From a virus, in the UHGV virus genome UHGV-1651579: a stretch of DNA of 21,812 nt. The stretch is one strand, 5' to 3'. Positions 7,611 to 18,057 of the stretch are shown here, piece after piece. Positions within the stretch are counted from its first letter, which is position 1; each line of letters starts with the position of its first letter. A model generated the notes under the pieces. That model worked only from the letters and a program-made list of their open reading frames with translations. It made no database searches and was not told where the DNA came from. The position numbers were made by a program, and so were the translations under genes.

Positions 7611-7630
7611 TACTGTACATATAAACAGTA
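7611..7630 (-). promoter_or_regulatory. LexA (SOS) box TACTGTACATATAAACAGTA
   Basis: CTGT-N8-ACAG with TA flanks; on minus strand overlaps a TACTGT -10 that is 17 bp from TTGACC (+ coordinates 7648-7653). Confidence 0.65.
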
Positions 7631-7684
7631 TTATTTATTACGGTACTGGTCAACTTTACGGGTTAATTGAATAACAAGATGGTG

Positions 7685-7699
7685 AAAACAATTTGTTTT
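7685..7699 (-). promoter_or_regulatory. P1 box copy j (AAAACAATTTGTTTT)
   Basis: about 30 bp upstream of the -35 of the LexA-box promoter. Confidence 0.5.
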
Positions 7700-7783
7700 G
7701 GCACTTGAGATTTTGCAAATCGCACCTACATGGAAAACGGCAATTTTTGAAACCTGATTTGACCCATGTGAAAGGAGGAAACG

Positions 7784-7987
7784 ATGAAGACCTATGATCG
7801 CAACCGTAACGCTATCACTACCGGCAGCCGAGTGATGGTGGCAACGAATGGTGCAACGGGAGTCATCAAGGAAATCTGCGGAGAAGGCAAATCAGAAGAA
7901 CAATTACGCCGCTCTGACTGCGTGTCTATCGAAGGTGTGGAAGGTCTATTCTGCCCAATGGATTTGGTTCGCCTGGGGTTCTATTAA
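7784..7987 (+). CDS. small hypothetical protein (67 aa)
   Basis: strong RBS GGAGG 6 nt upstream of ATG 7784; one of few plus-strand genes. Confidence 0.55.
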
Positions 7988-8000
7988 TTTCACCATCTAT

Positions 8001-8016
8001 AAAACAAATTGTTTAA
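8001..8016. promoter_or_regulatory. P1 box copy k (AAAACAAATTGTTTAA)
   Basis: abuts hairpin element copy 3. Confidence 0.45.
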
Positions 8017-8036
8017 GGCCACAACTAGTGGCCTTA
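8015..8036. repeat. hairpin element AAGGCCAC-aacta-GTGGCCTT (copy 3)
   Basis: 8-bp stem between convergent genes 7784-7987 and 8043-8741. Confidence 0.5.
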
Positions 8037-8042
8037 TCTGGC

Positions 8043-8741
8043 TTACGGAACAGCGGTAATCAGATCGCAAATGCCTGTTTTAGTTAAATCACTATTCAGC
8101 TTCTGAAAATTGGCATTCAGCATTGCGGTATGTATTCGATTCTCAAGTTCAAAGAAGAGATCGATCTTGCCCTCTTTGGCTGCCACCTTCTTCCAAATAT
8201 TCACCTGGTCATCTGCGATACGACTTGCGCAGGTGAACAAGAACGAACTCCCTCTGGGAAGGGATGTCGTGCTGTAGTATTCACCGTCAACTTCAATATA
8301 CTTAGCTCGGAATGACTCCAGAGTTAGCTTTTTACCGCTCTCAGCCTGCTTTGTGTCTGCCTTGCTTGTCTTTTCCTGAACTTCAGGCTGTTTCTGCACA
8401 GGCTTTGGTGTCTCATTGACCACCGCAGTGCTGGCCGAACCATCCAAACTCTTGAGGCCATTAATTTGGATTAGATAAGCCAACTCCAGAGCCTTATCAC
8501 CAGTGAGTTTTCCACGCATACTTACCCATTGACGCTGAACCGTCTTTAAGGCGTCTGCGTCCCCCGGGTTTGCTTTGAGTGCGTTGGAATAGGTAGAGCT
8601 AAGTTGTTCGTCTAATTTTGACAGGCGTTCGTTATCGCAGATTTTGTGTTCGATTTCTGCCGAAGCCTTTTGGCAGTCAAAGCTGGCTGCAAATACAGCC
8701 GGCGATGCCACCAACAATGATGCCAGTAGGATATTTTTCAT
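8043..8741 (-). CDS. secreted protein with LprI-like (DUF1311) N-terminal domain (about 232 aa)
   Basis: signal peptide MKNILLASLLVASPAVFA; C-x-KA-x-AE-x-IC-x-L-x-LD-x-Y ... QRQW pattern; track start 8747 is GTG, ATG at 8741 has GGAG upstream. Confidence 0.5.
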   Translation of the reverse strand: MKNILLASLLVASPAVFAASFDCQKASAEIEHKICDNERLSKLDEQLSSTYSNALKANPGDADALKTVQRQWVSMRGKLTGDKALELAYLIQINGLKSLDGSASTAVVNETPKPVQKQPEVQEKTSKADTKQAESGKKLTLESFRAKYIEVDGEYYSTTSLPRGSSFLFTCASRIADDQVNIWKKVAAKEGKIDLFFELENRIHTAMLNANFQKLNSDLTKTGICDLITAVP

Positions 8742-8779
8742 ATTCACTCCATAAATATAAAAGCGCCTGACTATAGCAC

Positions 8780-8995
8780 TTAACCAATTGCTTCTCTCAT
8801 CTGATTGTGAAGCTCTTTCAGCCCATCACGTACCGCGTTCATGATACGTTCTAGGTATTGGTATCTGGGGTTTGGCACTGTTGGCCAACCGGCATACCAC
8901 GGATCGTCACCAAACAGACTCAGCAGTTCGTTACCGACACCGAAACAGCAGCAACTTTCTTTTACGTCATCAGCGTTTTCTGCCTCGTCCCACAT
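8780..8995 (-). CDS. hypothetical ORF (71 aa); possibly 3' part of a frameshifted gene
   Basis: no SD before ATG 8995; frame is open upstream to 9082 and overlaps the end of CDS 9042-9281. Confidence 0.3.
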   Translation of the reverse strand: MWDEAENADDVKESCCCFGVGNELLSLFGDDPWYAGWPTVPNPRYQYLERIMNAVRDGLKELHNQMREAIG

Positions 8996-9041
8996 ATTGC
9001 GGGCCTGCTCTGCGTCGATTTCTCTCTCTCCCTGGGCAACT

Positions 9042-9281
9042 TTATGATTTCGGATTTGACGAAAAGCAGGTTTGCGTCGTTGTCATCGTCGACCGTACTG
9101 AAGTGGCACACTGAATTTGGCCGTCTGTAATGGGCAGATCCGGCAACTGTTTAAAAACTTCCATCTGCTCATGGATACGCAGAAACCACCTTGCCAGCTC
9201 CATCTGCTCACCGCGGGTGAGGGGATTATTCAGCGGGGACTTAACAAAAGCGGAGACTCGCTCGACAAGCAGATCATTCAT
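9042..9281 (-). CDS. hypothetical protein (79 aa)
   Basis: ATG at 9281 overlaps stop of upstream 229-aa gene by ATGA; track ORF extends to 9356. Confidence 0.45.
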   Translation of the reverse strand: MNDLLVERVSAFVKSPLNNPLTRGEQMELARWFLRIHEQMEVFKQLPDLPITDGQIQCATSVRSTMTTTQTCFSSNPKS

Positions 9282-9967
9282 GCCGCGCACCTCTCTGCTT
9301 TCTCCTGCAATTCGCGAACGAACTCGACCAAAGAGCCACCTGGCGGGATCTGGCATTCCTCAACCAACTGGAAGTAGATGTCTGCGGCCGCGCGTGTGTT
9401 CGAGCCTTTGTTTAGCTGCTCTTCGCGCAGCGCATCACGTTCATTAATCAAACGGACGCACTCGCCGTTACGCTGATCCACAACGGCCTCAAGTTCAGCG
9501 ATACGTTCGCCAGGAGTCTTACCTTCTTTGCGTTGAATGGTGACGGTAAACTCACCCATTTCAGGAACGTCGTACTCCAGCTCCAGGTAGTTTCTGGCCC
9601 CGCTACGAACAAACTCACCGGCAAACATGGTTGCGAACATCGCAGAGGCCATTTCACCTTTAAACAGAGACTCCAAATCTAACGGAGTGCCGGCAGCCAG
9701 AGCCTCTTTTGCTGTGTCCATTGCGTCCATGAACCGGTCAAACTCATTGGCGCATTTCTCAAGGTCTCTCCACTGCTGGCTCCAACGGCGTGCCAGATGG
9801 TCGATAAAAACCTGCGCCGATTCATCAAAGTTACCTTCGAACGTCACAAGCTCCTTGTCGATTTTGATGGTTCCGGCAGGCGCGCCTGCATTCCCCTGTA
9901 GCACTAAATTAAATGGCAGCTTCGCCTGATCAACGCTGGCGAATGTAATTCTCGATTTTTCGCTCAT
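9278..9967 (-). CDS. hypothetical protein (229 aa)
   Basis: ATG at 9967 with GAGG 7 nt upstream; P2 box 10010-10023 in its promoter. Confidence 0.6.
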   Translation of the reverse strand: MSEKSRITFASVDQAKLPFNLVLQGNAGAPAGTIKIDKELVTFEGNFDESAQVFIDHLARRWSQQWRDLEKCANEFDRFMDAMDTAKEALAAGTPLDLESLFKGEMASAMFATMFAGEFVRSGARNYLELEYDVPEMGEFTVTIQRKEGKTPGERIAELEAVVDQRNGECVRLINERDALREEQLNKGSNTRAAADIYFQLVEECQIPPGGSLVEFVRELQEKAERCAA

Positions 9968-16585: not shown

Positions 16586-16972
16586 TTACGCTGCCTTTTT
16601 ACGTGGTCTCTTCTTCCTGACAACATTGGCAGGATCATAACCACCCAGCTTTTTCATCACCGCCAGCGGTATCTTGCTGATGGTGTGCCCAGCTTCCTGA
16701 CAGTAGCCACGGAAGATAAGCAACATGCTGCCACCAGGGTTGATGTTCACCTCCACCAGCCCAAGTTCAACATCCGGCTCAACGAACGCCACGCGGCCGC
16801 CAGACAAGATGACGGTTTCGTTGGCGCATTCAGCCGCACGCTCGTACCACTGCGTATCGAGGGATTGTGGTATCAGCATGACCGTCGTCACTCCACGCGC
16901 CTGCTCGCGAATGGCTGCGTCTATCCAGGGGGTGATTTTGGAGTAGGGCGGGTTGTCGCAAAAGCATCCCAA
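16586..16972 (-). pseudogene. 5'-truncated phage-type Dam-like N6-adenine methyltransferase fragment (C-terminal about 128 aa)
   Basis: begins at a TTG directly before CDNPPYS; upstream extension of the frame is not methyltransferase-like; AT-rich junction 16980-17160. Confidence 0.5.
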
Positions 16973-17137
16973 CGATGATAATGGGGATCTGATATTACCC
17001 CGTATGGCAATGTCATGTGTCTTTTCCTTTGTGGTTATTTTGATACAAATTCTAAGCGTGCATAAGAGGCGTACAACCCATACAAAACGGCATACAAAAG
17101 AATATAAAGGTACATGATAATGATAAAAAAATAAGTA

Positions 17138-17151
17138 AGTAAATACTTATC
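17138..17151 (-). promoter_or_regulatory. P2 box copy 5 (AGTAAATACTTATC)
   Basis: about 165 nt upstream of the truncated Dam fragment. Confidence 0.4.
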
Positions 17152-17412
17152 AGATAGAGCAGCAACGATTTCTAAACGTCACAAGCAATTTTATGAGAGC
17201 AGTCATTTACTGATGACAAGAAATGAAAAAGGAGAACGGACGGTGAAGTTGTGAGATGACATTTACGGCGTTTGCGTGCGTCGTCTTCAAACGCATCCGT
17301 CGGCCACAGTTTCTGCTCTTGAATAAAATTCACTCATGCATTAATCCCTAAAGCTCTCAGTGTCTTTCTAAGACACCATATTTTATGCCCGGTAAAAAGC
17401 ATGAGTTTGCCT

Positions 17413-18057
17413 TTAAAACGTCTCTGAGGGCTTCTGACGCGCTCTGCTGATGTCTATTACCCCAGCTTTTGGACGAGGGTCTACAAGATTCAACTCTTCA
17501 ACACTGTGATACTCCGTGTCGAACTCCCGATCGACATGGCGAATGTAAATGGCTGTCAGAAGGCTGTTATCATTCAGAAAGTGTCCGTAAGATTTGCGAA
17601 TTACTTCGCCAACCTTCTCAATCTTCTCTCCGCCCATGCAGAGATGGTTAAATCGGCTGTGTTTCCGCAGCATTTCATCCACCGGCCCTGAGTAGACCTT
17701 ATCAACTCTCCCGAACCGGATGATATTTCCGGTATCAGCTTCAACCAGACAAACGAGTTTGCCAGGTTCGACACGATCTCGCCAAGTGACACCAGAGCGC
17801 AGTGTGTTGAAGTAGGGAGCATCCAATCCGATGATCGGTTTACGAAATGCTAGTAGTGGCACGTAACGTATGCAGCTGTTTAGGTGGAAATGCGCACCGG
17901 CGTCGTGGAGTTTAAGCCGGGTTTCGTTAATCGGGCATTTCGAAGCAATGCCGCAAAGGTCGCAGAGCAACTTCTGTTTGTTCAGACTAGTGTTTGATTC
18001 AATGGTGTAGGAGCCATCTTCAAGACGGCGAACCCAGCGCGTGCGTTTAAGATCCAT
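17413..18057 (-). CDS. hypothetical protein with N-terminal Cys cluster (214 aa)
   Basis: ATG 18057, weak RBS; CDLCG...C pattern; adjacent to replicon iterons. Confidence 0.5.
   Translation of the reverse strand: MDLKRTRWVRRLEDGSYTIESNTSLNKQKLLCDLCGIASKCPINETRLKLHDAGAHFHLNSCIRYVPLLAFRKPIIGLDAPYFNTLRSGVTWRDRVEPGKLVCLVEADTGNIIRFGRVDKVYSGPVDEMLRKHSRFNHLCMGGEKIEKVGEVIRKSYGHFLNDNSLLTAIYIRHVDREFDTEYHSVEELNLVDPRPKAGVIDISRARQKPSETF

Follow-up and report, generated by a model that had tools for sequence, protein, structure and literature searches.

A probable LexA-operated accessory gene carried as a putative mobile cassette by SSU5-like phage-plasmids and other temperate phages of enterobacteria

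The 21,812-nt stretch of viral DNA analysed here (hereafter the window) contains an 88-aa gene that, as the best overall explanation of the evidence presented below, is probably a phage accessory gene operated by LexA and carried on a mobile cassette. The gene is preceded by the 20-nt sequence TACTGTACATATAAACAGTA (Table 1), which its score and its conservation mark as very probably a functional LexA operator. An earlier note on this DNA had described these 20 nt as a consensus LexA box and had proposed motif scoring as a check. We scored the window with a symmetrised 20-nt LexA matrix built from 29 E. coli LexA sites, an uncurated list of our own drawn from published sites. The sequence was found to be exactly as described and, on this matrix, reached 24.2 bits, confirming the assignment; the runner-up in the window scored 12.4 bits, and just two of the 29 training sites outscored the box. 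The heterology index of the box, obtained with the same uncurated list, amounts to 2.6 and 4.1 for the two strands, which places it among the strongest sites, and it matches the perfect palindrome TACTGT(AT)4ACAGTA at 18 of 20 positions, with the CTGT-N8-ACAG core present.

The box is also the sole occurrence of CTGT-N8-ACAG in the 21.8-kb window. Chance alone would give 0.3 copies of so loose a pattern, and the finding that the bare pattern appears in at least one copy in 27 of 100 shuffles of the window lends some weight to the view that the box is a chance match, or else a decayed and non-functional site. The distance between the score of the full 20-mer and that of the runner-up argues against this view, as does the conservation of the site across homologous loci described below.

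The promoter of the 88-aa gene had been read as a minus-strand TACTGT -10 hexamer overlapped by the box and spaced 17 bp from TTGACC, upstream of the 88-aa ORF, and our analysis recovers the same arrangement (Table 1). TACTGT agrees with TATAAT at T1, A2 and T6, that is, at three of six positions, and because of this limited fit a consensus promoter scanner run on the window did not return the TTGACC-17-TACTGT promoter in its output. The homologous promoter of phage SE1 has the form TTGACC-16-TATACT, a fit at 10 of 12 positions, and its box begins inside the -10, while distant homologues present TTGAC-like hexamers at the same distance. The transcription start site is predicted from this anatomy to lie near position 7618, within the operator, and the operator, which ends 14 nt before the ATG of the 88-aa gene, begins at the -10 hexamer and spans this predicted start site, as expected of a site acting by occlusion. 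Given a LexA operator lying over the -10 of its promoter, we infer that expression of the 88-aa gene would be SOS-inducible.

Table 1. Features of the 88-aa gene and its surroundings in the window (positions numbered from the first nucleotide of the window; a point marks features without a strand).
Feature	Position	Strand	Remarks
LexA (SOS) operator TACTGTACATATAAACAGTA	7611..7630	.	24.2 bits on the LexA matrix; half-sites kept in 97 of 98 distinct homologous loci
-10 hexamer TACTGT	7625..7630	-	Inside the operator; same architecture in homologues
-35 hexamer TTGACC	7648..7653	-	17 nt from the -10; conserved block in the 43-region alignment
Shine-Dalgarno GAGG	7603..7606	-	6 nt before the ATG (7596); purine-rich block conserved
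88-aa gene (WP_023135689.1; SSU5_103 homologue; PHROG 2100)	7330..7596	-	RefSeq annotation match
Palindrome AAAACAATTTGTTTT, 15 nt	7685..7699	.	Centre some 74 nt before the predicted transcription start; kept together with the promoter at SSU5-like loci
AAACAAWTTGTTT cores	1487, 1972, 2722, 3620, 5691, 7258, 7309, 7687, 8003, 11725, 12928, 13632		
Inverted repeat, 33-nt arms	7253..7324	-	Directly after the stop codon of the 88-aa gene; two AAACAAWTTGTTT copies

At 107 loci with a homologue (38-100% identity), which collapse to 98 distinct sequences, we scanned up to 700 nt ahead of the gene for boxes of at least 16 bits. Such a box was identified upstream of the gene in 97 of the 98 distinct loci. 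In 79 of them it lies at -45 to -25 from the ATG, and in another 18 it lies 45-700 nt upstream, with one or two small genes between box and family member; the background in the remaining 657 kb of DNA from the same loci is a single site of at least 16 bits. The only locus without a box, an IMG/VR contig of 113,250 bp (L038), carries an ISL3-like insertion within the box itself (L038 2656-3972). The element sits in the AT-rich centre of the box, is associated with an 8-bp target duplication (TTATATGT) and splits the gene from its promoter and from one half-site. Because of this linkage across homologous loci, in which the half-sites and their placement with respect to the ATG are kept in 97 of 98 cases and down to 38% protein identity, the chance-match interpretation is in practice refuted, and we assign it next to no probability.

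Two further observations bear on the conservation of the box. The box tracks the 88-aa gene and not the divergent ydfZ homologue, since it is retained in loci that do not harbor ydfZ. Moreover, in an alignment of 43 distinct upstream regions, drawn from SSU5-like phage-plasmid loci and from lambdoid loci bearing the upstream palindrome, the conserved blocks comprise the palindrome, a GTTATT block, the -35, both LexA half-sites and the ribosome-binding site, and the variable parts are the centre of the box and the promoter spacer. This conservation footprint is what would be expected of a working operator. Together, the operator anatomy and the linkage in 97 of 98 loci strongly support, at the level of sequence, the SOS-inducible control that the earlier note had put forward for this gene. 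Homologues preceded by enterobacterial-type LexA boxes were also detected on contigs of 0.2-7 kb attributed to Capnocytophaga (L006), Micromonospora (L016) and Paenarthrobacter (L032); contamination with DNA of enterobacteria or phages is their most likely source.

Plasmids matching the window number 210 and come from Enterobacter, Salmonella, Escherichia and Citrobacter; the window also shows 86.5% identity to Salmonella phage SSU5 and is collinear throughout, repA included, with Cyrano, a phage-plasmid of E. coli LF82. About 14 kb of Cyrano nucleotide-metabolism genes are missing from the window between the repA and methyltransferase regions (Cyrano 63386-77691 versus window 16955-17428), and the best-matching records are IncFIB/IncHI1B cointegrates of 138-231 kb with IS elements. 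We therefore identify the window, from its matches and gene order, as an SSU5/pHCM2-like phage-plasmid or a rearranged derivative of one, rather than as a conjugative leading region; this phage-plasmid may be defective or fused.

This identification bears directly on the role that had been attributed to the gene, namely that of an SOS-induced factor of a conjugative plasmid, expressed upon entry of the plasmid into a recipient as single-stranded DNA. The 88-aa gene is closely followed by DUF1380 and DUF5983 genes, families of this type also occur in plasmid leading regions, and some of the host plasmids are large cointegrates typed as mobilizable, all of which would agree with such a role. However, 203 of the 210 matching plasmids are typed as non-mobilizable, collinearity links the region to phages SSU5 and Cyrano, and the family is present in integrated prophages of several types; the context of the gene is that of a phage-plasmid, not that of the DNA beside the oriT of a conjugative plasmid. 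Since the window corresponds to an SSU5-like phage-plasmid, the plasmid-entry rationale is left without support, and we deem it highly improbable. Elsewhere in the window, a segment of about 1.1 kb (4960-6045) is without an annotated gene in related plasmids; it contains three tandem-like repeats of about 30 nt (5526-5619) along with other short repeats and is 72% conserved with Cyrano 94275-95805. The Rfam scan of the window returned no family, for this segment as for the rest.

Members of the family occur in markedly different contexts. In SSU5-like phage-plasmids the 88-aa gene stands alone behind its own LexA box. Lambdoid prophages, among them the P22-like ones with phage SE1, carry the unit between the ea genes and xis-int. 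The P22-like homologues are 67% identical and reside in phages with a LexA-family repressor, and SE1 encodes its own LexA-family repressor of 216 aa. Comparison of SE1 with a phage-plasmid contig of 92.9 kb revealed 92% identity confined to positions -85 to +387 from the ATG, and the gene lies within this common stretch together with its promoter, the box and a terminator-like hairpin. In this pair, the unit thus displays the features of a moron, with a promoter and a terminator of its own and sharp borders; in the window, an AU-rich hairpin follows the 88-aa gene, with no U-tract terminator. Some lambdoid copies present a single SSU5-type palindrome at -104, which suggests that the cassette was transferred to them from a phage-plasmid. 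As a separate observation, in P22-like and lambdoid prophages (SE1: L115 3942-4862) the cassette lies directly upstream of a same-strand 116-aa ORF, possibly xis, beside the integrase gene, and excision could come to respond to SOS if transcription ran past the hairpin of the cassette.

P2/186-like prophages, among them Cartapus, a phage of LF82, and numerous prophage loci on chromosomes, share one operon arrangement in which a LexA box is followed by an ORF of 60-62 aa (62 aa in Cartapus) in the position of tum, usually by DinI, and then by the family member and variable cargo. The family member here holds the position occupied by orf97 in the SOS operon of phage 186. In several loci (L019, L020, L022, L025, L030 and L107) the gene is followed by differing long ORFs of 258-647 aa, and the ORFs found after the gene in prophage loci with a tum-position ORF suggest a hotspot of variable cargo.

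Expression of Orf97 from a plasmid blocks infection by 186. The occurrence of family members in the orf97 position, downstream of tum/dinI in the LexA operon of P2/186-like prophages, and the long variable ORFs that follow them would suit a factor of exclusion, defence or anti-defence that is induced by SOS and directed, while induction proceeds, at competing phages or at the immunity of the host. Such a factor is nonetheless a doubtful, rather improbable account of the 88-aa protein, which shows no similarity to Orf97 and whose family has a best PADLOC match that is not significant (E 0.015). In addition, the family gene is conserved while the downstream cargo varies, and it therefore behaves as a part of the SOS operon and not as cargo.

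Considered together, the promoter, the operator, the gene and, in some copies, a terminator appear to constitute a self-contained "SOS moron" cassette that moves between unrelated temperate phages. Since this site-plus-gene unit recurs in several unrelated temperate phages, we would place the 88-aa gene among the DNA-damage-induced phage accessory genes, as a further, uncharacterised case of this known class. As with phage morons, the unit is self-contained, has sharp homology borders and is common to unrelated phages; morons, however, are typically expressed in the lysogen, whereas the 88-aa cassette should be silent until the SOS response.

The evidence from the SSU5 subgroup also bears on a different function, that of a LexA-controlled antirepressor coupling the induction of SSU5-type elements to the SOS response by binding and inactivating a non-cleavable master repressor, in the manner of Tum in 186, AntC in N15 and GfoA/GftA in the Gifsy phages. 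SSU5-like elements are inducible by mitomycin (PMC9600943), and Cyrano, an SSU5-like phage-plasmid, is reported to be induced by genotoxic stress (PMC9928086); the production of virions by such elements after mitomycin C or ciprofloxacin (PMC9600943; PMC9928086) is in line with an antirepressor. So is the absence of any other strong LexA box from the SSU5 genome (103 kb), in which a single LexA-like site, that of the gene, exceeds 15 bits, with a score of 25.6 bits, and the next best reaches 14.9 bits. No S24 peptidase ORF or repressor was detected in SSU5 with a crude three-sequence LexA/UmuD/CI model, the same model that detects the S24 ORF of Cyrano (4e-19). Small proteins under LexA control, furthermore, are a known paradigm for antirepressors, phage-plasmid N15 included, and at 88 aa, with the box at its promoter, the protein has the size and the direct LexA control, as read from the DNA, that this paradigm entails. 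For the SSU5 subgroup, the sole LexA box, the lack of a detected S24 ORF and the inducibility of these elements fit an antirepressor at least as well.

Several lines of evidence point away from this function. No homology to Tum was found (hhalign probability 1%), hhalign against Orf97 and DinI revealed no similarity, and the family HMM found nothing in the 186 regions or in the part of N15 where the LexA box of that phage is located. The family is 67% identical in P22-like phages that possess a LexA-family repressor, it sits behind both a Tum-position ORF and DinI in P2-like prophages, and Cyrano is inducible and does not harbor a family member. The gene also lies in a plastic region with alternative cargo, the corresponding segments being window 7324-9318 and Cyrano 85331-93110. 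Trans-acting antirepressors are known even in phages that do not need them, as illustrated by FsoA of Fels-1 (PMC3121763), and this precedent speaks against the accessory-factor reading. Because the family co-exists with other switches and Cyrano is inducible without it, we rank an accessory factor first, an antirepressor second and an exclusion or defence factor third, and regard the antirepressor function as unlikely.

Within its plastic segment, Cyrano presents CYRAN_98 (L124), a UmuD-like S24 gene located 16 nt behind a 25.5-bit LexA box (OV696614 89275-89294). Its leader, ACAGTATT..GAGGCGAG..ATGGGC, resembles that of the 88-aa gene, and the two cases are alike in that an accessory gene occupies the same plastic region behind a strong LexA box, but the cargo is unrelated. 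N15 also encodes a UmuD-like protein (gp26). A second Cyrano box, of 21.9 bits (OV696614 41044-41063; L123), is found 46 nt before the integrase gene CYRAN_44, beside the putative repressor CYRAN_45.

Similar arrangements have been described in other temperate phages. In the p95-tum-orf97 operon of 186, and in its split P2-like versions (antirepressor, DinI), the LexA box likewise overlaps a sigma-70 -10 and controls small genes expressed only upon damage, and the P2-like SOS operons physically include members of the 88-aa family. Tum, DinI and Orf97 are, however, unlike the 88-aa protein in sequence, and in the phage-plasmid the gene is alone behind its box. GfoA and GftA of the Gifsy phages and AntC of N15 are, by their description, also small, directly controlled by LexA and encoded outside the immunity region. 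N15 is itself a phage-plasmid, although the N15 region searched contains no homologue of the 88-aa family, and in contrast to GfoA, GftA and AntC the family is spread over phages with unrelated immunity systems, a LexA-family repressor included.

The 88-aa protein has a mass of 10.2 kDa and a pI of 5.3, and its RefSeq and SSU5 counterparts (WP_023135689.1 and SSU5_103) are annotated as hypothetical protein. The family comprises 102 clusters at 50% identity, is essentially enterobacterial and is characterized by the invariant motifs VYRG, VFFQR and GGG[FY]WLG. Neither the protein nor 32 members of its family gave a significant match in Pfam, NCBIfam or PADLOC, PHROGs matched the family to an "unknown function" entry only (PHROG 2100), searches of PDB and BFVD with the 88-aa protein gave no match, and no paper on the gene family was found in the literature searched. 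Two candidate identities were discarded. A match of 22 residues to PCNA, obtained in a profile search of PDB sequences (E 0.076), was treated as chance, and an assignment to DUF2829/Tad2, taken from the UniRef name of one homologue (P0085), was not reproducible and was borne out neither by Pfam nor by the fold.

An AF2 model of the protein (pLDDT 75) predicts four strands, a helix at residues 58-78 and a disordered tail. The tail is C-terminal and acidic, ends in DDFKLT and has low pLDDT; across the family it carries the motif D-[DN]-[ND]-[FL]-x-L-[FT]-COOH, whose entropy of 0-1.4 bits, compared with about 3 bits in the preceding linker, indicates far stronger conservation. The consensus for binding the beta clamp, QL[SD]LF, is a short motif in a disordered region, often C-terminal. 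Many family members end in NLSLF or NFSLF, which are near this consensus, and the DFKLT of the window fits it less well. One could speculate, with little probability, that the family is an SOS-timed effector whose C-terminal motif (…D-N-N-L-S-L-F / …D-D-F-K-L-T) docks on the beta sliding clamp, on RecA or on SSB-partner surfaces. If this were true, unrelated temperate phages would reprogramme replication or repair at the moment of LexA cleavage, with a mobile LexA-operated cassette as the delivery vehicle.

The intergenic region upstream of the 88-aa promoter contains the palindrome AAAACAATTTGTTTT, which is probably what the earlier note had termed a P1 box. Repeats of this 15-nt palindrome number about 10 in the window, and its 11-nt core, AAACAAWTTGTTT, occurs about 12 times (21 strand matches versus 0.9 expected), mostly in intergenic positions and in many cases 20-30 nt ahead of a start codon on the minus strand; there are 8 copies in SSU5, against 0.1 expected, and 13 in Cyrano. 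With the exception of one hitch-hiking copy in some lambdoid loci, the core is specific to SSU5-like elements, being absent from P2-like and other non-SSU5 loci, and it is a candidate operator of a regulator belonging to the phage-plasmid itself. The notion that the 88-aa protein is an SOS-induced transcription factor acting on AAACAAWTTGTTT was rejected as a general mechanism, because the protein occurs without the palindrome in P2-like and further chromosomal-prophage loci outside the SSU5 group, as well as in many of the lambdoid ones.

The inverted repeat that follows the 88-aa gene is predicted to fold into an RNA hairpin of -30.5 kcal/mol (z -5.4) lacking a U tract, the 3' arm of which covers the AAGGAG of the next gene (DUF1380, ATG 7244). 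This hairpin may insulate the downstream genes from SOS-driven read-through; alternatively, the repeat may be a promoter-operator module of the regulator proper to the phage-plasmid. A related 55-nt module, consisting of the palindrome and TTTTCTTATTTGTGTTATTATC, occurs at 4487-4541 and 7256-7310 with 73% identity, upstream of two different minus-strand genes, and may represent a shared promoter-operator unit. On the other side of the box, the small divergent gene previously noticed at 7784-7987 is indeed present and encodes a YdfZ homologue (Pfam E 1.8e-30). Copies of AGATGGTGAAAACAATTTGTTTT in inverted orientation flank this gene (window 7677-7699 and 7983-8014), the downstream one abutting a GC-rich hairpin (AAGGCCAC..GTGGCCTT), an arrangement suggestive of a cassette boundary or of paired regulatory elements.

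Established SOS biology and the anatomy of the promoter lead to a simple scheme for the 88-aa gene. In undamaged cells, a LexA dimer would occlude its sigma-70 promoter; upon DNA damage, LexA self-cleavage stimulated by RecA would free the promoter, and a burst of 88-aa protein would be produced from a leader of about 21 nt. The protein would then serve as an accessory factor in SOS-induced cells, acting on a target common to enterobacterial hosts, for instance the RecA filament or the replisome, which it would bind through the small beta-rich domain of the structural model and the conserved acidic tail. That the protein is directed at the host, and is not an antirepressor, is argued from the distribution of the family, because no homologue of known function is detectable, and we advance it tentatively, as a possibility that could well prove mistaken.

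In the literature searched, we found no description of a LexA site in SSU5 or of damage sensing by phage-plasmids of the SSU5/pHCM2 type. Among Enterobacteriaceae, such elements commonly act as carriers of resistance genes, and the promoter of the 88-aa gene, as the sole strong direct LexA input in SSU5, offers the obvious first experimental handle on them. The linkage of PHROG 2100 to a LexA operator, which is nearly absolute in at least three unrelated lineages of temperate phages, makes this family a clean candidate for a new phage function of the SOS phase.
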